Source: Phycisphaerae bacterium
GTDB lineage: Bacteria > Planctomycetota > Phycisphaerae > Phycisphaerales > UBA5793
DNA length: 64,000 bases
Reading direction: 5' to 3'
Assembly (NCBI GenBank): GCA_039794345.1
Contig: JBDIVQ010000005.1
Span: 2,132-66,131 of the forward strand
In this document: positions 32,805 to 61,931 of the stretch, in pieces
Layout: each line of letters starts with the position of its first letter
Position numbering within the stretch: the first letter of the stretch is position 1
Notes under the pieces: generated by a model
Seen by the model: only the letters and a program-made list of their open reading frames with translations
Databases searched by the model: none
What the model was told of the DNA's origin: nothing
Position numbers and translations under genes: made by a program

Positions 32805-33767
32805 ATGGTCGAGATGAGCATCATCTATGCCGCTTGCGTCGCCGGGGCGATCGGGCTGCTCTTTCTCCTGCCGCGGGGCGACCGGCGGTGGGCGCCGATC
32901 GGCGCGGTGCTCGGGGGCGGGGCGCTGGGGGCGGGGTTGCTCGCGCTGTCGCGAGGCCAGGCGGCGGGCGGCGGCGTTGATGTCTTCTTCTACGTCCTCG
33001 CCTTCCTCGCCGTCGGCGCCGCGGTCAGGATGATCACCCATCCCCGGCCCGTCTACGCGGCTCTCTACTTCATCCTCGTCGTCCTTGCCGTCGCGGGGCT
33101 CTTCGTGCAACTCGCGGCCGAGTTCATGGCCTTCGCCCTCATCATCGTCTACGCCGGCGCCATCCTCATCACCTACCTCTTCGTCATCATGCTTGCGCAG
33201 GAAGCGCCCGACGACCGGCATCCCGATGCGCTCACCGACTATGACGCCACGGCCCGCGAACCCGTCGCGGCGACGATCGTCGGCTTCGTCCTTCTCGCGG
33301 CGCTGCTCGGAATGATGTACCGCGGCACAAGCCAGATGCCGGCGCATGCTGCGACGCACCGTCCGGCCGATGCGGAACTGGCGATGCTCACCGGCAAGGT
33401 CGAGGCCGCCTTGCGCAAAGCGGACCTGATCCGGCCGGAAGAGACGATCCGGGAGGTCGATGCGGAGACCCGCACGGCTCTCGTCGCATCTCCTTCGGGC
33501 GACGGAGTCCGAACGGTGACGCTGCCCGTCGATCTTCGCGTGAGCAACGTCGATGCCGTCGGCGTTTCGCTCCTGAGCGAGTTTCCCGTGAGCCTCGAAG
33601 TGGCGGGGGTGATTCTGATGCTCGCCATGCTCGGCGCGGTCGTGCTGGCGCGGAAGGAGCGTCTTGATGCGCCCCGCGAATCGCAGAGCCTCATCGGAAA
33701 GGCGCCCCACGATTCGCAGACCCTCATCGTGGGCGTGGGGGCCAGCGCGGAGGGGGGCGCATCATGA
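32805..33767 (+). CDS. nuoJ: NADH-quinone oxidoreductase subunit J (unusually long, 320 aa)
   Basis: Part of ORF 32040..33767, starting at MVEMSIIYAACVAGAIGLLF. NuoJ helices are present (YFILVVLAVAGLFVQLAAEFMAFALIIVYAGAILITYLFVIML and the terminal EVAGVILMLAMLGAVVLA). It has an expanded TM4-TM5 loop and a repeat-derived C-terminal tail. Confidence 0.85.
   Translation: MVEMSIIYAACVAGAIGLLFLLPRGDRRWAPIGAVLGGGALGAGLLALSRGQAAGGGVDVFFYVLAFLAVGAAVRMITHPRPVYAALYFILVVLAVAGLFVQLAAEFMAFALIIVYAGAILITYLFVIMLAQEAPDDRHPDALTDYDATAREPVAATIVGFVLLAALLGMMYRGTSQMPAHAATHRPADAELAMLTGKVEAALRKADLIRPEETIREVDAETRTALVASPSGDGVRTVTLPVDLRVSNVDAVGVSLLSEFPVSLEVAGVILMLAMLGAVVLARKERLDAPRESQSLIGKAPHDSQTLIVGVGASAEGGAS
33672..33735 (+). 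repeat. tandem 33-nt repeat module forming the NuoJ C-terminal tail
   Basis: ccccgcgaatcgcagagcctcatcgg (33672..33697) and ccccacgattcgcagaccctcatcgtgggcg (33705..33735). They are translated APRESQSLIGK / APHDSQTLIVG. The second unit is 30/31 identical to the reverse complement of 58420..58450. Confidence 0.8.
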
Positions 33768-34088: not shown

Positions 34089-36131
34089 GTGATGACCAGC
34101 GCCCTGAGCGCCCATCTCGCTCTGCACGCTTCGCCGACGCTCGCGTCGGCGGCGGAAGCGGTGCGCCTCGGCGTGCCGGTCGAGTGGATTCCCTTCGCGC
34201 CGCTCCTGGCCGCGGTGCTGTGCGGCATTCTGGCCCTGCGCCCCGGCGACGCCCGCGCCCGCTATGCCGGCGCGATCTGCGTCGCCGGACTGGGCCTGGC
34301 CTTTCTGACTTCCGTCGCGGTCGCCGTCAGCATCGGCCACGGCACGGCCCAGGAGACGATCTTCGAGTGGATCCGCTTCGACCGCCTTCGCGCCGACTTC
34401 GCCTTCTTCCTCGATCCGCTCACAAGCATCATGCTTCTCGTCGTGACGGGCATCGGCACGCTCGTGGCGGTGTACGCCTCGGAGTACATGCGCGGCGACC
34501 GCGGCTATGCGCGATTCTTCGCCTTTGTCAGTCTCTTCATCACAGCGATGACGACGCTGGTGCTCGCCGACAACCTCATCCTCATGTACCTCGGATGGGA
34601 GGGGGTGGGGCTGTGCTCGTATCTGCTCATCGGGTTCTACTACGAGAAGCCCGCCGCCGTCGCCGCCGCCAAGAAGGCGTTCATCGTCAACCGCGTCGGC
34701 GACCTCGGCTTTGCGCTGGGCATCTGCCTGGCGTACGTGCAATTCGGCAGCGTCGAGTTCGCGGTGATCTTTGAGCAGGTCGAAGCGCTGCGGGCGTCGG
34801 GCGCTGAGATCTCGACGGCGATCCAGGCGATCCCCTTCCTGCTCATGCTCGGCGCGTTCGGCAAGAGCGCGCAACTGCCGCTGTACGTCTGGCTGCCGGA
34901 TGCGATGGAAGGCCCGACGCCGGTTTCGGCCCTTATCCACGCCGCGACGATGGTGACGGCGGGCGTCTATCTCATCGCCCGCACGCTGCCCCTGTTTCTG
35001 CTCAGCGAGTACGCCCTGCCGACGGTCGCGTGGGTGGGCTGCCTGACGGCGGTCTTCTCCGCGACCATCGGCATGGCGCAGTACGACATCAAGCGCATCT
35101 TCGCCTACTCGACCGTTTCGCAACTGGGCTACATGTTCATGGGGCTGGGGGTGCTCAGCAGCGTCGGCGCGACCTTTCACCTCTTTACCCACGCCTTTTT
35201 CAAGGCGGCGCTCTTCCTCGGCTGCGGCGCGGTGATGCACGGCTTTGCGGGGCAACTCGATCTGCGCCGCCTTTCGGGCCTTGGCCGCGTGCCGGGCTGG
35301 CAGATCGTGACGGGTTCGATGCTCGTGGCCTGCCTCGCGCTGGCCGGGTTTCCGCTCACCTCCGGGTTTTTCAGCAAGGACATGATTCTGGCCGAAGCGT
35401 TCGTCACGCCCGGGCCGGGATATCGCGCGATCGGCTGGATCGGGCTGCTGACGGCGGGGATGACGGCGTACTACACCTTCCGGGTCTTCTTCCGCGTCTT
35501 CCTCGGCCCGGTGCAGTATCACCCCGGCGAAGAGCATCACGGACACGACGATGCCCATCATTTTCACCCGCACGCGCCGGGGCCGGCGATCAACTTCGTG
35601 CTCATCGTGCTGGGCATCGGCGCGATCTTCGCCGGCTGGGTCGGCGTCGGCGGCGCGCATCATGGGTGGTTCGGCTCGATGATCCATCACTCGACGGCGG
35701 CGTACGAAGCGCCGGCCGGCGCAGCGCACGGCGGCTTTTTCAGCAACCCGCACCAGTGGATGATGCTCGCGTCGTCGATCGTCGGACTCGTGGGCATCGG
35801 TGTTGCCGCATATCTGCACCTGCTCAACAGGCCGATGGCCGAGCGCCTGCGCCGAGCGATCCTGCCGGTCGCGGTTCTTGCGGAGCACAAGTGGTGCGTG
35901 GATGAGGGCTATGACCTGCTCATCCGCCGTCCGCTGCGGTTCATCGGGCACGTCTGCTACGCGCTTGGCGACACGCTCATCATCAACGGGCTGGTCGCGC
36001 TGGGCGGGGCGGTCCCGCGACTCATTGGCGCCGCGGTGCGGCCGATGCAGAACGGCCGACTTCAGGGCTACGGCCTCGGAATGGCCGGCGGGCTGGCCAC
36101 CATCATCATCATCGTCTGGGTCATGCTGTGA
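34089..36131 (+). CDS. nuoL: NADH-quinone oxidoreductase subunit L
   Basis: 680 aa antiporter-like subunit (YLGWEGVGLCSYLLIGFYYEK, KSAQLPLYVWLPDAMEGPTPVSALIHAATMVTAG). Confidence 0.93.
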   Translation: MMTSALSAHLALHASPTLASAAEAVRLGVPVEWIPFAPLLAAVLCGILALRPGDARARYAGAICVAGLGLAFLTSVAVAVSIGHGTAQETIFEWIRFDRLRADFAFFLDPLTSIMLLVVTGIGTLVAVYASEYMRGDRGYARFFAFVSLFITAMTTLVLADNLILMYLGWEGVGLCSYLLIGFYYEKPAAVAAAKKAFIVNRVGDLGFALGICLAYVQFGSVEFAVIFEQVEALRASGAEISTAIQAIPFLLMLGAFGKSAQLPLYVWLPDAMEGPTPVSALIHAATMVTAGVYLIARTLPLFLLSEYALPTVAWVGCLTAVFSATIGMAQYDIKRIFAYSTVSQLGYMFMGLGVLSSVGATFHLFTHAFFKAALFLGCGAVMHGFAGQLDLRRLSGLGRVPGWQIVTGSMLVACLALAGFPLTSGFFSKDMILAEAFVTPGPGYRAIGWIGLLTAGMTAYYTFRVFFRVFLGPVQYHPGEEHHGHDDAHHFHPHAPGPAINFVLIVLGIGAIFAGWVGVGGAHHGWFGSMIHHSTAAYEAPAGAAHGGFFSNPHQWMMLASSIVGLVGIGVAAYLHLLNRPMAERLRRAILPVAVLAEHKWCVDEGYDLLIRRPLRFIGHVCYALGDTLIINGLVALGGAVPRLIGAAVRPMQNGRLQGYGLGMAGGLATIIIIVWVML

Positions 36132-36138
36132 GCTCATC

Positions 36139-36324
36139 AGAACCAACCACAGAGATTAAGAACCAACCACAGAGAACACAGAGGACACAGAGGATGAACA
36201 GAGTTGGATTGAGAGTCGAAGTCGAAGTCGAGGACATGATGTGAAGTCGAGTGAGGTTTCTGAGATTGAAATGAACTGCATTCCCCTCTGTGCGCCCTCA
36301 GTGTCCTCAGTGTTCTCTGTGGTT
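36139..36324. repeat. low-GC inverted-repeat (MITE-like or structured-RNA) element in the nuoL-nuoM spacer
   Basis: Arms: aaccacagagaacacagaggacacagagg (36165..36193) and cccctctgtgcgccctcagtgtcctcagtgttctctgtggtt (36283..36324). They are complementary at about 34 of 39 positions. There is also a perfect 17-nt tandem duplication agaaccaaccacagaga (36139..36155, 36159..36175) and agtcga micro-repeats in the centre. Confidence 0.75.
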
Positions 36325-36350
36325 GCATCTGTTTCGACGTTTGTAGAGCC

Positions 36351-37945: not shown

Positions 37946-39529
37946 ATGCTTGATCGCGTCGCGACACTCTGGCCCGAGATCATTCTCTTCGTCACCGTGA
38001 TGGTTCTGATGCTCACGGGCACGAGTGGAGACAAGGACATCCGCCGCGCCGGCTTGTGGATCGCCGGCGTCGGGCTGCTCCTGGCGTTCATCTTCGCGGT
38101 GCGCATGCCTGAGCCGGAGACGCTCATGCCGGGGCTGGCGGGCTTCATGCGGCCCGCAGCGTGCGTGGTGGGGTTCCTGCTTCTGATGGGTCTGGGCAAC
38201 ATTGACTCGCGGCTCGAATCGGAGGTGGACGGCGGGCGTCGCTTCGACCCCCTCGACACGACGCAGGGCGAGCAACTCTGCTTCTTTCTCCTCTCGCTCA
38301 TCGGCCTGATGCTCTGCACGACCGCGAGCGATCTCATCTGGCTCTTCCTCGCGCTGGAGATGACGAGCCTGCCGACGTACATCATGGTCGCGCGAAGCCG
38401 CTCGAAGAAGGCGTCGCAGGAAGCGGCGGTGAAGTATTTCTTCCTCGGGGCGGCGGCGGCGGCGATCTTTCTCTACGGCTTCGCCATGCTCTACGGCGCC
38501 ACCGGCTCGCTGCACCTGCTCGACATCCGCGCAGCGCTCGAAGCGCAGGCGGCGGCGGGGGGCATCGGTTCGCTGGCCATCCTCGGCCTGACGCTGGCGA
38601 TCATCGGCGTCTCCTTCAAGATCGCGGCGGTTCCCATGCACTTCTACACAGCCGATGTCTACGAAGGGGCGGCGGCGCCGGTCACGGCCTTTCTGGCCTT
38701 CGTGCCCAAGGCGGCGGGCTTCGTCGTCCTCATGCTCCTGCTCGGCACGGCCCTGCACCTCGGCGAGGGTGGGCAGGCGTGGCCCGAGGCGATTCGCGTC
38801 CTTCTCTGGGTGCTCGCGGCGCTCACCATGACCATCGGCAACGCCCTGGCGATGTGGCAGAACCGCATCAAGCGCATCCTCGCCTACTCCTCGATCGCGC
38901 ACAGCGGTTATATGCTCGTCGGCCTTGTCGCCGCGATGGAAACGGCCGGCTCGGCGAGCGCTTCTCCGGCGACCAACGGCTTCGCGGCGGTGCTCTTCTA
39001 CATCGTCGTCTACGGCATCACCAATCTCGGCGCGTTTCTCGTCCTTGCCTGCCTTGAGCGTCGCGGCGAGGAGATCGAGACCGTTGATGACCTCGAAGGA
39101 CTCTGGAGCCGCCACGCCGGGCATGCGACGATCCTCGCGCTGTGTACGCTCTCGCTCATGGGTCTGCCGCCGCTGGTCGGGTTTTTCGCGAAGTTGTTTC
39201 TCTTCACCTCGGCGATTCGCGCGGGTGAGTACGTGCTGGTGATCATCGCCGGGCTCAACAGCGCCGCCGCGGCGTGGTACTACCTGCGACTCGCGGGCGT
39301 GGGCTGGGTGCGCCGGCCGGGTTCGAGCGCCGGCGAGATCGAGCGCACGCCGGTCGTTGCGCGGCGCTTCGCGGCCGGGGTGTCCGCCGCGACGACGATC
39401 CTCCTGCTGGCGCTCACGGCGCGGCTCATCACCGCCGGCGATCAGGCGGTGCAGTTGCGCCCCTCCGACGCGCCGCCGCACCACGCCGCGCTGTCGACTC
39501 CCGCCGCGGATGATCGGCCGCAGCGCTAG
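37946..39529 (+). CDS. nuoN: NADH-quinone oxidoreductase subunit N
   Basis: 527 aa (LALEMTSLPTYIMV, FKIAAVPMHFYTADVYEGAAAPVTAFL, AYSSIAHSGYML). Confidence 0.92.
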   Translation: MLDRVATLWPEIILFVTVMVLMLTGTSGDKDIRRAGLWIAGVGLLLAFIFAVRMPEPETLMPGLAGFMRPAACVVGFLLLMGLGNIDSRLESEVDGGRRFDPLDTTQGEQLCFFLLSLIGLMLCTTASDLIWLFLALEMTSLPTYIMVARSRSKKASQEAAVKYFFLGAAAAAIFLYGFAMLYGATGSLHLLDIRAALEAQAAAGGIGSLAILGLTLAIIGVSFKIAAVPMHFYTADVYEGAAAPVTAFLAFVPKAAGFVVLMLLLGTALHLGEGGQAWPEAIRVLLWVLAALTMTIGNALAMWQNRIKRILAYSSIAHSGYMLVGLVAAMETAGSASASPATNGFAAVLFYIVVYGITNLGAFLVLACLERRGEEIETVDDLEGLWSRHAGHATILALCTLSLMGLPPLVGFFAKLFLFTSAIRAGEYVLVIIAGLNSAAAAWYYLRLAGVGWVRRPGSSAGEIERTPVVARRFAAGVSAATTILLLALTARLITAGDQAVQLRPSDAPPHHAALSTPAADDRPQR

Positions 39530-39694
39530 CGCGTGGGGTGGCATGGCGTCGCGCTTCGCGTCGCTATGCCCGGGCGTTCCCGCACGATCGATCGTCCCTG
39601 CGCGATCTGCATAGCCAGGCGAAGCACCAGGCCATGCCACCCATCACGCGCCCGCGATCGGCTCCGATCGAATCGCCGACCATACGATCTTCAC

Positions 39695-55639: not shown

Positions 55640-57121
55640 TCATGAGTCGAGACGTTCCCGCACCAGTTGGATGAAGCGCTGCCCGCGCTGCTCGAAGTTG
55701 GTGAACTGGTCCCAACTGGCGCAGCCGGGGCTGAGCAGGAGAATGTCGCCGGCCTCCATTCGCGCCATGGCGCTGCGGACCGCAACGTCCAGCGTGCGGC
55801 AGTGCAGGCACGTCCCCGTCGGCGCAAGGTCGTGGATCCGCTCGCCCACCGCGCCGATGGCGTAGAGTCGCGCGACGCGCTCGCCCAGCGCCGCCAGCGG
55901 CGCGAGATCCGCCTTCTTGTCGTACCCGCCGACGATGAGGTGCAGCCGCGCGGGATCATCGAAGGACTCGACCGCGAGCGCGGCAGCGGCGGGGGTGGTG
56001 CACTTGGAGTCGTTGTAGAAGCGCCGGCCGTCCTTCGTCTGCGCCACGAGTTCGAGTCGGTGGGGAAGGCCGCGGAAGTCCGCCAGCGCGGCGATTGATT
56101 CGTCAAATGGCACGCCAGCCGCACGGCATGCCTCAGCGGCCATGAGCGCATTGAGGCGATTGTGCCCGCCGGGGATGAGCAGGCTGATCCCCGCGAATCG
56201 CAGGTCGTCCGCGGCGATGTCAGTGCGCTCGACGCCTTCGCTGGTCGGCCAGTCGCGCAGGCCGGGGCCGAGGATCGCGTGATCACCGGGGTGCTGGTGC
56301 GCCAGCAGGTGCTGCTTGGAGGCGCGGTAGTGATCGAGCGAGCCATGCCAGTCGGCGTGGTTGTCGCTGAAGTTCGTGATGACGGCGACGTGGGGGGACC
56401 ATTTGTGGGTTTTGGTTAGCCGCGACGCGGAGGCTTTGCGCAGCGGAGCGCGGGCGTGCGACGTTGAAAAGTCACCCCCACCCCCGCCCTCCCCCGCAGA
56501 GCCGGGGGAGGGAGTGCCTTCGGTTAGCCGCGACGCGAAGGCTTTGCGCAGCGGAGCGCGGTCGTCCGCAGTCCCCGCGCCCCCCAGCCACCACAGCATC
56601 GCGCTGGACAACTCGAGCACGACCCACTCCTCCGCGCCGATCTCGACGCCGAGCAGCGAGCCGCCGATGTTGCCGCCGAGGTGCGCGGCGCCGCAGTGCG
56701 CCCGCAGGATGTGATGAATCATCGCGCTCGTTGTGGACTTGCCCGCCGTACCTGTCACGCCGATGATGCGATCGCGATCGGGCAGTGAATCGATGAGCAG
56801 TTCGATCTCCGTGGTGATCTCTGCGCCCGCCTCGCGTGCCGCGTTGAGGAACCGGTTCTCCCACGGCCGCGGCACCGCCGGATTCGCCACGACCAGGTCC
56901 GTCTCGCGGAAGTCGCGCTCCTCGTGCCCGCCGAGAACCAGCGTCACCTGTCCGGCATCAACCAAATCGCGCACGGATTCGAGCGAATCGGCGAGTTGAT
57001 CGGCAGAGGCGAGATCGGTCAGCAGCACGCGGCAGCCGCAGCGCTGCACGAGCCAGCGCGTTACTCCGACGCCGCCGCCGAAGTGCCCGAGGCCCATCAC
57101 GGTGACCCGCTGTTGCGTCAT
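55640..57121 (-). CDS. murD: UDP-N-acetylmuramoylalanine--D-glutamate ligase, carrying an in-frame repeat insertion
   Basis: VTVMGLGHFGGGVG Rossmann N-domain. GVTGTAGKSTT P-loop. VLELSS strand. ITNFSDNHADWHG. C-terminal YNDSKCTTP and LLLSPGCASWDQF. About 57 extra codons lie between VLELSS and AVITNF. Confidence 0.9.
   Translation of the reverse strand: MTQQRVTVMGLGHFGGGVGVTRWLVQRCGCRVLLTDLASADQLADSLESVRDLVDAGQVTLVLGGHEERDFRETDLVVANPAVPRPWENRFLNAAREAGAEITTEIELLIDSLPDRDRIIGVTGTAGKSTTSAMIHHILRAHCGAAHLGGNIGGSLLGVEIGAEEWVVLELSSAMLWWLGGAGTADDRAPLRKAFASRLTEGTPSPGSAGEGGGGGDFSTSHARAPLRKASASRLTKTHKWSPHVAVITNFSDNHADWHGSLDHYRASKQHLLAHQHPGDHAILGPGLRDWPTSEGVERTDIAADDLRFAGISLLIPGGHNRLNALMAAEACRAAGVPFDESIAALADFRGLPHRLELVAQTKDGRRFYNDSKCTTPAAAALAVESFDDPARLHLIVGGYDKKADLAPLAALGERVARLYAIGAVGERIHDLAPTGTCLHCRTLDVAVRSAMARMEAGDILLLSPGCASWDQFTNFEQRGQRFIQLVRERLDS
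56414..56561. repeat. direct-repeat pair with central hairpin embedded in frame in murD
   Basis: 40-nt units ggttagccgcgacgcg[g/a]aggctttgcgcagcggagcgcgg at 56414..56453 and 56522..56561 (39/40 identical, 108-nt period). A perfect 10-bp stem lies between them: ccctcccccg 56487..56496 / cgggggaggg 56503..56512. Confidence 0.85.
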
Positions 57122-58530
57122 GGCTGGCCGTAGCGGTGGCGGTATTTGCGGTCGAGCGCCTTCTGCTTGTTGTCGAGATCGACTTCCGCCCCGTCGATGT
57201 ATGCGGCGAGGACGTGGGTGGTGATTTCGAGCGGATCGCCGTCGGTGATGATGAGCGTGGCGTTCTTGCCGGTTTCGAGCGAGCCGAGCACCTTGCCCGC
57301 TCCGATGATTTCGGCGGCGCTGAGTGTGACGGCGCGCAGAGCGATCTCAGCGGGCAGGCCGTACGCCGCCGACTTCGCCGCGTGATAGGGCAGGCTGCGC
57401 TCGTGGGCCGGCTCTTCGCCGCTGGCGATGCAGAAGCGAATGCCCGCCTCGTGAAGCGCCAGCGGCAGCGTGAAAGGCTGGTCGTGCGCAAGGTCGCGGC
57501 GCGTCGGCATGCGGTGCGTGCCGACGACGATAACGGGAACGTCGTGAGCCTTGAGCAGGTCGAGGCACTGGTCCGCGTCGGCACCGCCGACGATCACCGC
57601 GCGCAGGTTCATGCGGTTGGCCCACGCGACGGCCGAACGGATCTGCGCCGCATCGCCCGCGTGAATGAAGACCGGCACGAGGCGGTCGATCGCCGGCAGC
57701 ATCGACTCGAGGCGCAGGTCAACGGGGAAGGTGGGATCGGCGCTGCGGGCGCGCTGATAGGCCCTGGCCTCCTCGAAGGCGCGGTCGATGCGGTCGAGAT
57801 TCTCTTTGCTGCGGCGGAGTTGCTCCTCTTCGCTCTCCTCGATCCACCACGCCGTGCGCGGCCGGACGTTGGGCCAGCGCACCACCAGCCCGGCGCGGTC
57901 GGCGATGGTGAGTTCTTCCGTCGTCCAGCCGTCGAGGCGGATCGTCGAGCAATAACCCGAGATTGTCCCTCCCTGCGGCACGACGAGGGCGGTGAGGATG
58001 CCGTTGGCGCGTGTGACGGGGATGAGCGCGCTGTCGGGGTTGACGGCGATGACGGCGCGGACCTCGGGCGTGATCGCGCCGGTTTCGCTCACGTCGATCG
58101 TGGCGCGGACGGCGCCGATCTCGCTCAGCCCCAGCGTCGTGTCGGCGCTGATCAGGCCGGGATAGACGTGCTTCCCCGCGGCGTCGATCACTTCCGTCTC
58201 GCCCGCGGCGGCGTAGGCGCCGGCGCCCACGTCGGTGATGATCCCGTCGCGGAAGACGATGTAGCCGCGCTCGATCGACTCGCTCGACACCGGGTGGATC
58301 GTCGCGTTGACGATGGCGATGGTCTTCTCCTGCGGCTGCCCGGGGATCTGGATCGACTGGGCGTGCGCCGATGCCACGAGGCACAGCGCCGCCGACACAG
58401 CGAGAAGCACTGAGGCGGACGCCCACGATGAGGCTCTGCGAATCGTGGGGTGCTCTCCGCGAATCGCAGCGAGCCTTCGCTCCCCTGCGCAGAGCCTTCG
58501 GGTCGCGGCTAAACAGGTCATCAGGTTCAT
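57118..58530 (-). CDS. amidohydrolase-family protein (secreted), metal-binding HxH motif apparently absent
   Basis: Part of ORF 57118..58824, starting at MNLMTCL (ATG after GGAGGAA). Signal-like ASASVLLAVSAALCLVASAHA. Amidohydrolase N-terminal pattern (IVNATIHPVS...GKHVYPGLISADTTLG), where ISAD replaces the usual xDxHxH. The stop overlaps the murD start (ATGA). Confidence 0.75.
   Translation of the reverse strand: MNLMTCLAATRRLCAGERRLAAIRGEHPTIRRASSWASASVLLAVSAALCLVASAHAQSIQIPGQPQEKTIAIVNATIHPVSSESIERGYIVFRDGIITDVGAGAYAAAGETEVIDAAGKHVYPGLISADTTLGLSEIGAVRATIDVSETGAITPEVRAVIAVNPDSALIPVTRANGILTALVVPQGGTISGYCSTIRLDGWTTEELTIADRAGLVVRWPNVRPRTAWWIEESEEEQLRRSKENLDRIDRAFEEARAYQRARSADPTFPVDLRLESMLPAIDRLVPVFIHAGDAAQIRSAVAWANRMNLRAVIVGGADADQCLDLLKAHDVPVIVVGTHRMPTRRDLAHDQPFTLPLALHEAGIRFCIASGEEPAHERSLPYHAAKSAAYGLPAEIALRAVTLSAAEIIGAGKVLGSLETGKNATLIITDGDPLEITTHVLAAYIDGAEVDLDNKQKALDRKYRHRYGQP
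58420..58514. repeat. composite of the murD-type and nuoJ-type repeat units inside the amidohydrolase 5' coding region
   Basis: The reverse complement of 58478..58514 matches the murD unit at 33/37. The reverse complement of 58420..58450 matches nuoJ 33705..33735 at 30/31. A partial extra unit (gcgaatcgcagcgagcc) lies between them. Confidence 0.8.
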
Positions 58531-61500
58531 TGGTGGTATTCCTCCATTCCGCAGCCGCACTCGCCCGGGCGCGAGGAGTGGGGGTCGTAGCCCATCTCGT
58601 AGCGGCGGCGCATCAGTTCCGCGAGAGCGCGGCGCTCGGGGGGGATGTCGCCCTCCTCGGCCGGCTCGGCAGGCTTCTCCTCCTCCGCCTTCTTCCGGTC
58701 CTTTTCCGGGTCCTTGAGGTTCTTTCTGAGGACCTTCTGAATGAGGCGCTGGCGCTCCGCCTTTGCCGCCTGCTGCATCGCGAGGTCGCTCTCGATGCTG
58801 AACATCTGCCGCCCCTCGATCCACGTCTGTTCGCAGCGGGCGAGCGTGCTCAGCGGCGAGGCGGACCAGATGACGAAGTCCGCGTCCTTGCCGACCTCGA
58901 TCGAGCCGACGCGGTCGTCGATCGCCAGTTGCCTCGCGGGATTGATGGTGACGAACTTGAGGGCCTCGGCGGGATCGACGCCGCCGTAGCGCACCGCCTT
59001 GGCCGCCTCGGTGTTCATGCGGCGGGCGAGTTCATCGGAGTCGGAATTGAAACTGACGACGACTCCCGCGTTGTGCATGATCGCGCCGGCGTAGGGGATG
59101 GCGTCGTAGACCTCAAACTTGTAGGCCCACCAGTCGCTGAAGGCCGACCCGCCCACGCCGTGTGCGGCCATCTCGCTGGCGACCTTGTAGCCCTCGAGAA
59201 TGTGCTGGAACGTGCCCAGCGTGAAGCCGAACTCGTCCGCGACGCGAATGAGCATGAGAATCTCATCCTGCCGGTAGGAGTGGCAGTGGACGAGGCGCTC
59301 GCCGGCGAGGATTTCGGCGAGTGTTTCGAGTTCGAGGTCGCGGCGCGGGGGATACTGGCGCTTCGTCGTCGCCTCGCCCGTGTTGTAGCGCTGCCAGGCT
59401 TCGGCGTAGTCCCGCGCCGCGAGAAAGGCACTGCGGATGAGCGTCTCGACGCCCATGCGCGACTGCGGGTAGCGCGTCGTGAAGTTGTCGCCCCAGTTGG
59501 CCTGCTTGACGTTCTCGCCTAGCGCGAACTTGATGCCGCCCTTGGCGCCCTCGAAGCGGAATTGCTCCGGCCCGAGTCCCCAGCGGATCTTCACGACGGA
59601 GTTCTGCCCGCCGATCGGGTTCGCCGAGCCGTGCAATTGGTTTGCGGCGGTGAGGCCCCCCGCGAGCTGGCGGTACCAGTTGATGTCATCGGGGTCGATG
59701 GCGTCGTTGATGCGCACTTCGGCCGTGATCGCCTGCGTGCCCTCGTTGATGCTGCCGCGGTCAATGCCGGTGTGCGAGTGACAGTCGATCAGGCCCGGCG
59801 TGAGGTGCTTGCCCGTCGCGTCAATGATGAGCGCGCCGGAGGGGGCGGCGAGGCTGCGGCCGATCTGCGCAATCTTCCCGCTCTGCACCAGCACATCGGT
59901 CTGTTCGAGGATGCCCGCCTCGGCGCTCGTCCAGACGGTGGCGTTGCGGACGAGCACGGCCTCGGGCTGGTCGCGCGGCTCGATGAGGCCGAACGCGCCC
60001 AGAGGCGTGGGATACTGCGCCGGTGCCGGCTCGTAAGGCTCCTCATCCGGCTTCTTCGCGTCTTTCGGCTCGTCATCCTGTGCTCCCGGCGCGTCAGCGG
60101 CTTGCTTCGCTTCGTCGGCATCCTCCTCGGCGCCGTCGTCGGCCTCCTCGGCCTCGATTTCTTGTGCGTCCTCCGCCCCATCGTCGTCGTCGTCGCTTTC
60201 AGCGGCGGCGTCGGGTTCTTCCGGCTTGCGCACGGCCGACCAGTCGAGTTCCTGCCCGTCGGCGGTTCGGATGATGCCGCGCATCGCATCGCCTTCGACG
60301 ACGCTGGTGTACTGCTCCCACGCGCCGCGGCCGTGCAGGTGGCCCGGGAGGACGAAACTGAGTCGCTCGACGCGCCACGAGACGGCCTTGGCCTTGGTCT
60401 TCGTCTCGCCGATCGCCGCCTCGACCTCCGGCGATTCGGGCTTGCCGGTGATGATGAGGTCGAAGGTCGCGCCTCCTTCGCCGCCGAGCGTCGCCGCCCA
60501 GGTTCCCTGTGGTTTGACGGGGGGGACGGGCTTGAGTTCAATGCGTTCGCCGTTCACCCACAATGCGGTGACGGTGCGGTCTTCGCCGAAGATCTCACCA
60601 GTTCCCTCGATGACGGCGAGGTGGGCGATCATGCCCTGCTCGAGGCTCCCCACCACCTTGTCGAGTGCGAGGATCTTCGCGGGTGTGGTGGTGAGGGCCG
60701 CGAGCGCCTGCTCTTCCGTCAGCCCCTCCTTGATCGCCATTCGCAGATTGTCGAGGAACTTGTCGCGCTGGCGCAGAGAGGCGGTGGTGAGGGCGACCGT
60801 CGCCCCGCCCTCGATGAGGCGGCGGGGGTTGGTCGGCGCCTGCTCCCAGTGCATGAGGGTGAGGAGATCGACGCTGTCGGCGTCCTCGATCGCCTCGATC
60901 TTCGGCGGGCCGGGGAAATTGATCGGCAGGATGACGGGAAGGTTGGTTTCGAGGACTTCGCCGAGGCGTTGATACTCCTGCCCGCTGCCGAGCGCGTAGA
61001 GGTTGAGGTTGAACTCATCGCGCAGCCTCGCCGCGCGGAGCAGGTCGAGTTCATCGCTGGTGTTGAAGAGGACGGGATGCGGCGGGGTGCGCACGACGCC
61101 GCGAAGCGCCGCCAGCGAGTCGTTGGGCACGGGCGGCTCGAGGTGCATGGGGTTGAGGCGGTAGATGTCCATGCAGTGGGCGTACCAGTCGGCGTCGATG
61201 AACGTCTGCCGCACCAGCGCAACGGCGCCGATGAGCGAGCCGGGATACCCCTCGCTGCGCCAACCGCCCGTTTCAAACTGGACGACCTGCGCGCCGCGCG
61301 GCTGGTGGACGATCATCTCCGCCCCGTCGGCGACGAGGGCGATGGTCGCCGCCTGCCCGCGGAAGATGCCCGAGTCGGGGACGATCTGTGCGGCCGTGAA
61401 GCCGATCTTGTGCAGCGACTCGATCACGCTGCGCTCGATCGGGGCCGCATTGAGGGCGCTGAACTCGGCGCGGACCTTGCTGTTCCAGTGCAGTCCGGGC

Positions 61501-61835
61501 GAACTCGGCAAAGACGCCGGCGCGCGCACCGGCACCGCCAGGTCGATGAAGCCGGCATGGACGGTGTGGCCGGTCAGGTCCCAGACGCGCGCGTCGGGGG
61601 GGATGTTCGGCTCAGCGCCGACGTACTCGATCACGCCGTCGCGCAGGACGATCGTGCCCTGCTCGATGACTTTGCCCGGTGCGACGATGATGCGGGCGTT
61701 GGCGAGGGCGTGGATGCGCGGGACGTTGGGCGGCGGGCCGTTGGCCGGCTCGCTCGGCGGCTGGGCCGGTGCGGCGGCGTGCAGCATCCAGGAGAGGGAC
61801 AAGAGGGCGAGGCCGAAACGCGAGTGGCGAGCCAT
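58527..61835 (-). CDS. large two-module amidohydrolase-family protein (secreted)
   Basis: Part of ORF 58527..61928, starting at MARHSRFGLALLSLSWMLHAAAPA (signal). The N-module has GHTVHAGFIDLAVPV (no HxH). An acidic Asp/Glu/Ala linker follows. The C-module has GKHLTPGLIDCHSHTGID (intact HxH) and a later VSFNSDSDE. The stop overlaps the next start (ATGA). Confidence 0.8.
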   Translation of the reverse strand: MARHSRFGLALLSLSWMLHAAAPAQPPSEPANGPPPNVPRIHALANARIIVAPGKVIEQGTIVLRDGVIEYVGAEPNIPPDARVWDLTGHTVHAGFIDLAVPVRAPASLPSSPGLHWNSKVRAEFSALNAAPIERSVIESLHKIGFTAAQIVPDSGIFRGQAATIALVADGAEMIVHQPRGAQVVQFETGGWRSEGYPGSLIGAVALVRQTFIDADWYAHCMDIYRLNPMHLEPPVPNDSLAALRGVVRTPPHPVLFNTSDELDLLRAARLRDEFNLNLYALGSGQEYQRLGEVLETNLPVILPINFPGPPKIEAIEDADSVDLLTLMHWEQAPTNPRRLIEGGATVALTTASLRQRDKFLDNLRMAIKEGLTEEQALAALTTTPAKILALDKVVGSLEQGMIAHLAVIEGTGEIFGEDRTVTALWVNGERIELKPVPPVKPQGTWAATLGGEGGATFDLIITGKPESPEVEAAIGETKTKAKAVSWRVERLSFVLPGHLHGRGAWEQYTSVVEGDAMRGIIRTADGQELDWSAVRKPEEPDAAAESDDDDDGAEDAQEIEAEEADDGAEEDADEAKQAADAPGAQDDEPKDAKKPDEEPYEPAPAQYPTPLGAFGLIEPRDQPEAVLVRNATVWTSAEAGILEQTDVLVQSGKIAQIGRSLAAPSGALIIDATGKHLTPGLIDCHSHTGIDRGSINEGTQAITAEVRINDAIDPDDINWYRQLAGGLTAANQLHGSANPIGGQNSVVKIRWGLGPEQFRFEGAKGGIKFALGENVKQANWGDNFTTRYPQSRMGVETLIRSAFLAARDYAEAWQRYNTGEATTKRQYPPRRDLELETLAEILAGERLVHCHSYRQDEILMLIRVADEFGFTLGTFQHILEGYKVASEMAAHGVGGSAFSDWWAYKFEVYDAIPYAGAIMHNAGVVVSFNSDSDELARRMNTEAAKAVRYGGVDPAEALKFVTINPARQLAIDDRVGSIEVGKDADFVIWSASPLSTLARCEQTWIEGRQMFSIESDLAMQQAAKAERQRLIQKVLRKNLKDPEKDRKKAEEEKPAEPAEEGDIPPERRALAELMRRRYEMGYDPHSSRPGECGCGMEEYHQ

Positions 61836-61931
61836 GGGCGATCCCCGACGCGGTGAAAGCGAGAGTGTAGCCCGCACCGTCGCCGGCGAGAATCCGCCCC
61901 TTGCTCCGCCGGCCGCGCGCCGATGCAACGA

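Follow-up and report, generated by a model that had tools for sequence, protein, structure and literature searches.

Palindromic repeats of two REP-like families between the ancestral start codon and the predicted signal-peptide core of a Phycisphaerales amidohydrolase gene

Repetitive extragenic palindromic (REP) elements, the REP doublets forming hairpins (REPINs) and clusters of the bacterial interspersed mosaic element (BIME) type have been described together with the genes for REP-associated tyrosine transposases, or RAYTs (Nunvar 2010, PMC2817692; Bertels & Rainey 2011, PMC3116915; Di Nocera 2013, PMC3733652). The last of these surveys, in which Planctomycetes figure only in general terms and Phycisphaera is not named, already describes REPs inside the N-termini of open reading frames (ORFs) and, through its reference 49, the expression in vivo of proteins decorated at the N-terminus with the Rickettsia palindromic element RPE-1. 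Here we consider a stretch of 64,000 nucleotides (nt) from a Phycisphaerae bacterium (contig JBDIVQ010000005.1; the whole stretch is referred to as the window), in which the gene for a small amidohydrolase carries units of two such repeat families, A and B, between its start codon and the segment encoding the hydrophobic core of its predicted signal peptide. The explanation that we favour, and hold with moderate confidence, is that a REP cluster came to lie in the 5′ end of this gene, that a start codon downstream of it was subsequently lost, and that translation reads through the repeats from the upstream start codon, ATG 58530.

The gene lies on the minus strand in an operon-like run of large amidohydrolase, small amidohydrolase and murD, with gene identities backed by Pfam and a 4-nt ATGA overlap at each of the two junctions. 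Translation from ATG 58530 gives MNLMTCLAATRRLCAGERRLAAIRGEHPTIRRASSWASASVLLAVSAALCLVASAHA, followed after the predicted cleavage site by QSIQIPG. Unit B begins 12 nt past the upstream stop codon. Unit A, at 58419–58450, is identical at 31 of 32 positions to the tail of nuoJ (33705–33736), and unit B, at 58478–58512, matches two sites in murD at 32 of 35 (56524–56558) and 31 of 35 positions (56416–56450), in each case on the opposite strand. The unit A 28-mer CCCACGATTCGCAGAGCCTCATCGTGGG has two matches in the window at no more than three mismatches, and the unit B pattern has three, compared with 0.00 expected in both instances from dinucleotide shuffles. An earlier note on this DNA had placed two repeat units within the annotated ORF, between its start and the hydrophobic core, and these matches bear it out. 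Absent from that note were an in-frame GTG at 58410, a 10-mer, CGCAGAGCCT, that is common to A and B and lies in opposite orientations in the two units at this locus, and a third, A-like piece, A′, so that the order is B, inverted A′, A. The assignment of A′ is tentative; its 13/13 seed CCGCGAATCGCAG matches the nuoJ A1 unit at 33674–33686 with E = 0.11. Head-to-head dimers of this kind are typical of REPs (PMC3733652). The window, which samples its own genome over 64 kb only, holds three A units, three B units and A′.

The units are read in different frames at their different sites: A encodes APHDSQTLIVG in nuoJ and HPTIRRASSW in the amidohydrolase, while B encodes RAPLRKAFASRL in murD and LAATRRLCAGE in the amidohydrolase. 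The small number of copies inside the window, three of each unit, might by itself suggest that the three loci resemble one another by chance, being rich in GC, or through a shared protein motif, and not as mobile DNA. This reading is already refuted by the shuffles, in which no matches are expected, by the use of different frames and strands, and by the tens to hundreds of copies found in other genomes and metagenomes, and we attach practically no weight to it.

A scan for unit A with a relaxed pattern, taking one genome per species, gave 69 loci in five Planctomycetota/Phycisphaerales assemblies. Together with the window and loci fetched earlier, 86 strict copies were collected, the loci coming from 5 assemblies, with roughly 30–35 strict matches in JAPKGW01 and the same range in WYBR01. 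Their consensus, gCAyCCCACGATTCGCAGAGCCTCATCGTGGGCGTg, is a palindrome of 36–38 nt, with a stem (CCCACGAT/ATCGTGGG) of 8 bp, or about 11 bp with one mismatch, closed by a 12-nt loop. The unit occurs singly, in tandem arrays of 38–39 nt and as inverted pairs. The flanking gene pairs are unidirectional in 47 instances, convergent in 9 and divergent in 9, and 60 of 83 copies (∼72%) lie outside long ORFs rich in GC at third codon positions (GC3), as judged by a crude ORF classifier that missed the amidohydrolase copy in the window and misassigned the nuoJ copy.

Unit B, with the consensus gTTTAGCCGCGAC[C/G]CGRAGGCTYTGCGCAG[G/C]GGAGCG(CGGC), is likewise a palindrome (GCCGCG...CGCGGC with inner CCC/GGG) and is far more widespread than A: at least 155 strict copies are present on at least 120 metagenome contigs, and it is also found in the A-selected loci. 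Inverted doublets, B(+)/B(−), number 33 among the matches listed, with a modal spacing of 72 nt. B is preceded by TTAG (gTTTAGCC), one base off the GTAG tag of REPs; the flanks of A are GCAY and CGTG, neither of which matches the GTAG/CGTC tag. A candidate compensatory base pair in B (GACCCG...CAGGGG versus GACGCG...CAGCGG) was dropped because no G/C combination occurs among the 155 metagenome copies listed (C/G, 85; G/G, 70; G/C, 0). A further candidate, that B followed by A is a single composite element, was ruled out, since in the B-selected metagenome loci A is found near only 2 of the 155 listed B copies; A and B are therefore independent families. They co-cluster only in the present clade, where, in relatives of the window, B-to-A clusters are found between the stop and start codons of successive genes at the E1α/E1β/E2 junctions of pyruvate dehydrogenase (PDH) genes. 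In the locus sample, which was chosen for A, 62 of 72 stemmed occurrences of CGCAGAGCCT are A units.

A single IS200-like transposase gene of the Y1/HUH type accompanies each family in relatives, flanked by units of that family. B in inverted orientation flanks an ORF of 196 residues (L026:131–721 and L058:446–1036, L numbers denoting fetched loci), and B doublets flank another (L063:349–927); A flanks an ORF of 195–206 residues adjoining ispG (L023:5265–5855, L029:4868–5488 and L043:747–1334). For all six ORFs the best Pfam match is Y1_Tnp, at 21.9–37.6 bits with five of the six above the cut-off of 23, and the best NCBIfam match is REP_Tyr_transpos, the REP-associated tyrosine transposase, with E-values of 1e-7 to 1e-12. 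The HUH histidines (H104 and H106) and Y174 are invariant in an alignment of the six. Because the NCBIfam scores fall below the equivalog cut-off (48 versus 80 bits), the proteins are classed as divergent and RAYT-like on their sequences. We conclude from the A- and B-flanked Y1 genes that the repeats form two REP families and that each of these has its cognate RAYT-like gene. The earlier note had called the units unrelated, which holds in so far as they are separate families with their own transposases, but not for the 10-nt core that they share or for their co-clustering at other junctions. No RAYT gene was found within the 64-kb window; the genome of the bacterium presumably carries both. 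RAYT-like genes were also seen on two B-selected metagenome contigs (L173, 696–1274, and L143, 2667–3110), whose products are 59% identical to the B-type protein and 28% identical to that of the A type.

To place the cluster in time, we compared the window protein with a graded series of orthologues from a protein search (P0002–P0060; P0001 is the window protein, P0002 comes from L001, P0003 from L005, and P0122, considered below, from L200). The comparison of N-termini that the earlier note had called for is clear-cut for the 57 more distant proteins (P0004–P0060, below ∼77% mature identity), all of which have ordinary N-termini with no repeat-encoded sequence. P0002 has the B-encoded part only, and P0003 was called with a short N-terminus. 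At the DNA level, however, the alignment places B as well as A of L005 at the corresponding position, after the upstream stop and before the called start, and it has B at this position in L001. The B...A cluster is orthologous in the window, L005, L001/L203 and L200; its position is thus shared by no fewer than four related lineages and it is not a recent insertion, so the notion of a new insertion in this genome has to be given up.

The start codon can be placed by means of the outgroups L078 and L079, which contain no REPs and encode signal peptides of 26–27 residues. In both, the ATG overlaps the upstream TGA as ATGA, is preceded by GAAGGAGG, and opens a protein beginning MN... From this we conclude that ATG 58530 (ATGAAC, MN...) is the ancestral start and that the REP cluster lies downstream of it. 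The Shine–Dalgarno-like GGAGGAA of the window, in which GGAGG is spaced 10 nt from the ATG, is homologous to GAAGGAGG in the outgroups and to GAGGAG in L001, L005 and L203. The ORF, its translation, its ATG and the GGAGGAA motif are as originally described.

In L005, unit A is followed by 39 nt, GGGGGTTTGCTTCAAGGATGATTGAAATGAGTGAGCGCAT, containing a Shine–Dalgarno motif (AAGGA) and the ATG of MSERINTT...; precisely this segment is absent from the window. L200 reads A-A-TTCAAGGATGGTTGAAATGAATGAACGC, in which a Shine–Dalgarno motif and an ATG again follow the REPs in sequence homologous to the 39-nt segment of L005; its contig begins inside the REPs, so that the ATGA position lies off the contig. 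In the tree of the mature regions, ((window, L001-like), L005), P0122 keeps the downstream start and nests inside the L001-like clade, whose members P0002, P0121 and P0123–P0125 are tied to the upstream ATG. It follows that the ingroup inherited the downstream start from its ancestor and that this start disappeared separately in the window lineage and within the L001-like clade. The frame from ATGA is open across the REPs in the window, L001, L203 and L005, and in L001 and L203 there is no in-frame ATG, GTG or TTG between the REP and the mature protein. The gene is nevertheless conserved and under purifying selection in these lineages, with 91% amino acid identity compared with 70% identity at four-fold sites. 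Given this selection and the lack of a downstream start in L001 and L203, the B unit must be translated there. The indels of 12, 39, 6 and 39 nt at the locus, all multiples of 3, were also weighed as evidence of translation, and then down-weighted because the alignment of a 4 + 8-nt gap is arbitrary and the period of A, 39 nt, is divisible by 3 in any case. The exact junction of upstream stop and B was sought in metagenomes and not found.

These observations suggest the following history. The cluster of B, a decayed inverted A-like unit and A would consist of non-autonomous palindromes copied by RAYT-type Y1/HUH transposases. It would have inserted at the 5′ end of the small amidohydrolase gene before the members of a small Phycisphaerales clade diverged, separating the ancestral start from the segment for the hydrophobic core. 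Their common ancestor would also have had, or gained, a Shine–Dalgarno motif and ATG just 3′ of the REPs, which could then remain an untranslated leader. The 39-nt deletion removed the downstream start in the window lineage, as independent deletions did in sister lineages, and translation would now most likely begin at ATG 58530, through coupling with the termination of upstream translation, and continue through the stop-free REPs to give a product with an Arg-rich n-region of 40 residues, cut off after AHA/QS (the slash marks the predicted cleavage site). The earlier reading of the repeats as an n-region would then apply to the window after its deletion, but not to L005 or L200, where the downstream AAGGA and ATG allow the repeats to remain an untranslated leader.

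Use of ATG 58530 in the window itself we infer from its position, suited to termination–reinitiation coupling, and from its retained Shine–Dalgarno motif; that translation runs from it through the REPs seems to us reasonably probable. Several points weigh against this and against the wider history. The window, unlike L001, has an in-frame GTG at codon 41, and the n-regions of some orthologues (P0005) carry no positive charge, so that a bare MLLAVSAAL... signal is conceivable. Little can be read from the open frame: A is free of stops in five of six frames and B in four of six, stops are rare at 67% GC, and the 39-nt spacing of A units is a multiple of 3. Gene callers put the start 3′ of the REPs in L005 and L200, and most N-terminal REPs are considered likely annotation artefacts and probably extragenic (PMC3733652). 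In addition, A lacks the GTAG tag, the RAYT scores are below the equivalog cut-off, and the window is without a RAYT gene.

Many of the same points would fit a start at GTG 58410 (MLLAVSAALCLVASAHA, then QS), which the earlier note had anticipated in naming a non-ATG start downstream of the repeats as fatal to its proposal. The long ORF would then be an artefact of stop-free, GC-rich repeats, and 58411–58527 a 117-nt untranslated intercistronic leader whose hairpins, should they act, would do so through the RNA, on mRNA stability or as an attenuator of coupling between the two amidohydrolase genes. The scarcity of stops, the uncharged n-regions, the starts of L005 and L200, the extragenic position of most A copies and of most N-terminal REPs in the literature, and the B-to-A clusters between stop and start at the PDH junctions all accord with it, as does the nucleotide identity of the REPs (see below), which fits a constraint at the DNA or RNA level. 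Such a codon does exist, but as a start it is weakly supported. Neither GGAG nor AGGA occurs in the 20 nt preceding GTG 58410, whereas the other starts of this gene in relatives have a Shine–Dalgarno-like motif; a ribosome would have to bind on the 3′ arm of the A hairpin; L001 and L203 have GCG in place of this codon and are obliged to use the upstream ATG; and a signal peptide begun there would lack an n-region altogether. We regard initiation at GTG 58410 as rather unlikely, though the most serious competitor to initiation at ATG 58530.

If ATG 58530 is used, the predicted signal peptide, assigned by inspection, is 57 residues long. Its n-region (residues 1–40) is atypically long and, with 7 Arg and 2 Glu, has a net charge of about +5; it is followed by the hydrophobic core VLLAVSAALCLVA and the cleavage site AHA/QS. 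The features of a Sec-type signal are thus present by inspection, namely a charged n-region, a hydrophobic core and small residues at −3 and −1, and the A-x-A/QS site is conserved across the orthologues. By the same inspection neither Arg-Arg pair forms a convincing twin-arginine (Tat) motif: T-I-R-R-A-S-S-W lacks a hydrophobic pair after RRx, and T-R-R-L-C-A sits ∼25 residues before the hydrophobic core, so the suggestion that a Tat signal would tolerate the repeats finds no support. A lipoprotein reading was dropped as AALC carries Leu at −1. From its sequence the long leader would still support Sec export and, if it is translated, the REP-encoded part is most likely removed by signal peptidase, leaving the mature enzyme unchanged. 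The case supports the view of a cleaved n-region as a tolerant site for added sequence.

The REP units at this orthologous site are conserved beyond neutral expectation. Unit A is identical at 33 of 35 positions between the window and L005, and unit B at 36 of 38 and 35 of 37 between the window and L001 or L203; these identities of 94–95% compare with 65–70% at four-fold sites (P about 1e-4). The non-repeat hydrophobic core beside the REPs diverges freely, and any constraint would act on the REP nucleotides and not on the encoded peptide. RAYT-linked turnover, gene conversion or a role at the RNA or DNA level might account for such conservation. One might suppose that the cluster has acquired its own function where it lies, for instance as a regulator of translational coupling or of the stoichiometry of the two amidohydrolases, and is kept by selection instead of being simply tolerated, in which case it would matter less whether the cluster is translated. 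Its retention at one site in at least four lineages, unit identities of 84–95% against 65–70% at four-fold sites, the start of B so close to the upstream stop and the recurrence of B-to-A clusters at other operon junctions are in keeping with this. Against it, turnover through RAYTs, re-insertion beside existing REPs and gene conversion would conserve the units equally well; L001 has lost most of A, and the B unit of L005 has decayed, with 6 mismatches in 37. Moreover, folding of the leader on the coding strand is no better than that of shuffles (z = −0.62; on the plus strand, z = −2.2) and no Rfam family was found over the whole window at gathering thresholds, and we make no claim of a structured RNA for the leader. 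A recruited function is improbable in our estimation.

A more speculative synthesis joins these strands. Selfish REP DNA, lying between the ancestral start and a second one, would have been made coding twice, independently, when separate deletions of the second start in the window lineage and in the L001-like lineage forced read-through and turned the REPs into the n-region of a working signal peptide, and its conservation above neutral expectation would mark a role retained beyond translation, either RNA-level control of the coupling of the two amidohydrolases or recognition by RAYTs; the loop core CGCAGAGCCT, shared by A, B and the murD hairpin, could then define a REP superfamily recognised by its loop rather than by a GTAG foot. 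We offer this combination as an unlikely one.

Table 1. Positions of the repeat units, start codons and genes discussed in the text. Coordinates refer to the window unless a locus is named.
Feature	Position	Strand	Remarks
ATG start, small amidohydrolase	58528..58530	-	overlaps TGA 58527-58529 of large amidohydrolase as ATGA
Shine-Dalgarno-like GGAGGAA	58539..58545	-	within 3′ end of upstream gene
REP unit B, GTTTAGCCGCGACCCGAAGGCTCTGCGCAGGGGAGCG	58478..58514	-	encodes CLAATRRLCAGE; lacks the 3′ CGGC closing bases of many copies
Degenerate A-like unit A′, CCGCGAATCGCAGCGAGCCTT	58457..58477	+	inverted, head-to-head with unit A; tentative
REP unit A, GCACCCCACGATTCGCAGAGCCTCATCGTGGGCGT	58419..58453	-	encodes EHPTIRRASSWA; usual 3′ G(G) removed by the 39-nt deletion
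Junction of 39-nt deletion relative to L005	58418..58419	-	missing segment GGGGGTTTGCTTCAAGGATGATTGAAATGAGTGAGCGCAT
In-frame GTG (codon 41)	58408..58410	-	sole canonical alternative start 3′ of the repeats
Predicted 57-residue signal peptide, if the ATG is used	58360..58530	-	by inspection
Large amidohydrolase	58527..61838 or further	-	upstream gene
Small amidohydrolase	57118..58530	-	
murD	55640..57121	-	downstream of small amidohydrolase
murD in-frame REP cluster	56414..56560	+	B 56414-56450, hairpin 56487-56512, B 56522-56558
nuoJ A units	33672..33738	+	A1 33672-33697, A2 33702-33738; 3′ tail of nuoJ ORF, before ATGA overlap with nuoK
A copies deep in ORFs	L021 5579-5654; L039 7591-7627; L065 1951-2026; L052 975-1011		

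The remaining repeats of the window and its relatives deserve brief description. The hairpin between the two B units of murD is CCCTCCCCC-GCAGAGCC-GGGGGAGGG and encodes PSPGSAGEGGGGG; the cluster as a whole lengthens by ∼40 residues a loop in the middle region of the Mur ligase, a loop that is variable among orthologues. This site is a hot spot, with one B only in L005, a G-rich hairpin only in L077 and L079, nothing in L078 and a longer version in L001. The nuoJ tail ends in ...APRESQSLIGKAPHDSQTLIVGVGASAEGGAS before its stop and contains two A units, an arrangement found alike in L027 (JAPKGW01); the two units were probably an intercistronic REP pair that has become part of the ORF. Elsewhere, four loci contain between them six A copies set back by more than 120 codons from either end of long GC3-rich ORFs; these are possible further in-frame intragenic REPs, or else fused ORF calls.

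Within the window, a small hairpin (TCCGG...CCGGA) at 2520–2560 on the minus strand surrounds CGCAAAGCCT, with a loop core as in A and B. The AT-richer spacer between nuoL and nuoM (36130–36350) has two copies of a direct repeat, GAACCAACCACAGAGA, and an inverted repeat of 45 nt with arms at 36159–36203 and 36286–36330 that are 84% complementary; by its sequence it looks like a different element, resembling a miniature inverted-repeat transposable element (MITE) or REPIN. A further inverted repeat, at 39529–39649 directly after a TAG stop, has 41-nt arms, 80% complementary, and a 39-nt spacer, and could be a long terminator-like or REPIN-like hairpin. In L033 (∼4851, minus strand) the TTTAG head of B supplies the TAG stop of a thiolase-like gene (...ATIIEGNV, then stop), whose orthologue in L026 (∼4321) stops earlier; REP termini have been described as a source of stop codons (PMC3733652). 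Finally, L203 (WYBR01000062.1) is titled 'Vicinamibacteraceae bacterium PLA1' and holds a Phycisphaerales-type amidohydrolase–murD locus with both REP families; the taxonomic label of this assembly looks wrong.

The phenomenon is already known, and existing knowledge of REPs and of secretion is unchanged by this case. What it adds, modestly, is an ordered evolutionary series, from outgroups without REPs, through REPs with a downstream start, to the loss of that start twice. The series outlines a route by which extragenic repeats enter genes: insertion in a tolerant leader, loss of the start, and incorporation of the repeat into a disposable signal peptide. It also documents two REP families in Phycisphaerales, each with its own RAYT-like transposase. 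REPs that are stop-free in most frames are readily absorbed into ORFs, and the nuoJ tail, the murD loop and the amidohydrolase N-terminus, all in one 64-kb window, serve as a warning for the annotation of GC-rich genomes.

The case fits the biology of REP/REPIN elements and RAYTs in most respects. A and B are imperfect palindromes of 36–38 nt with tens or more dispersed copies, A lying mainly between unidirectional or convergent genes; both form tandem or inverted dimers; in relatives the same repeats flank single-copy Y1/HUH transposase genes; several REP families occur per genome; and a REP terminus supplies a TAG stop, in L033. The exceptions are the tag, with neither GTAG nor CGTC in A and TTAG in place of GTAG in B, and the long loops of 12–14 nt, whose 10-nt core is shared by the two families. 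The transposases, below the NCBIfam equivalog cut-off, and the Phycisphaerales host also set the present elements apart.

As in the intragenic N-terminal REPs of Di Nocera (2013), the repeats here occupy the 5′ end of an annotated ORF, encode 20–30 or more residues, and have their coding status judged against shorter orthologues. For the sister lineage, however, the comparison here points in the opposite direction, since the REPs follow the ancestral start and a downstream start is missing from L001 and L203. A further difference is that the repeats sit in the part of the gene for a cleavable signal peptide. Palindromic repeats tolerated in frame within protein genes are also known as the Rickettsia palindromic elements (RPE-1 and its relatives). 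RPE-1 is longer, however, and Rickettsia RPEs have no dedicated flanked transposase, whereas most A copies (60/83) lie outside long ORFs; the resemblance is functional only, the two being set apart by host, GC content and the flanked RAYT genes.

Extended signal peptides with long n-regions are known, for example those with the extended signal peptide region (ESPR) of autotransporters, a conserved protein motif with a proposed function. The predicted amidohydrolase signal resembles these in its length of ∼50–57 residues, its long charged N-terminal extension, its normal hydrophobic core and its AXA site. Unlike the ESPR, the amidohydrolase extension is derived from repeats, poorly codon-adapted and specific to its lineage.

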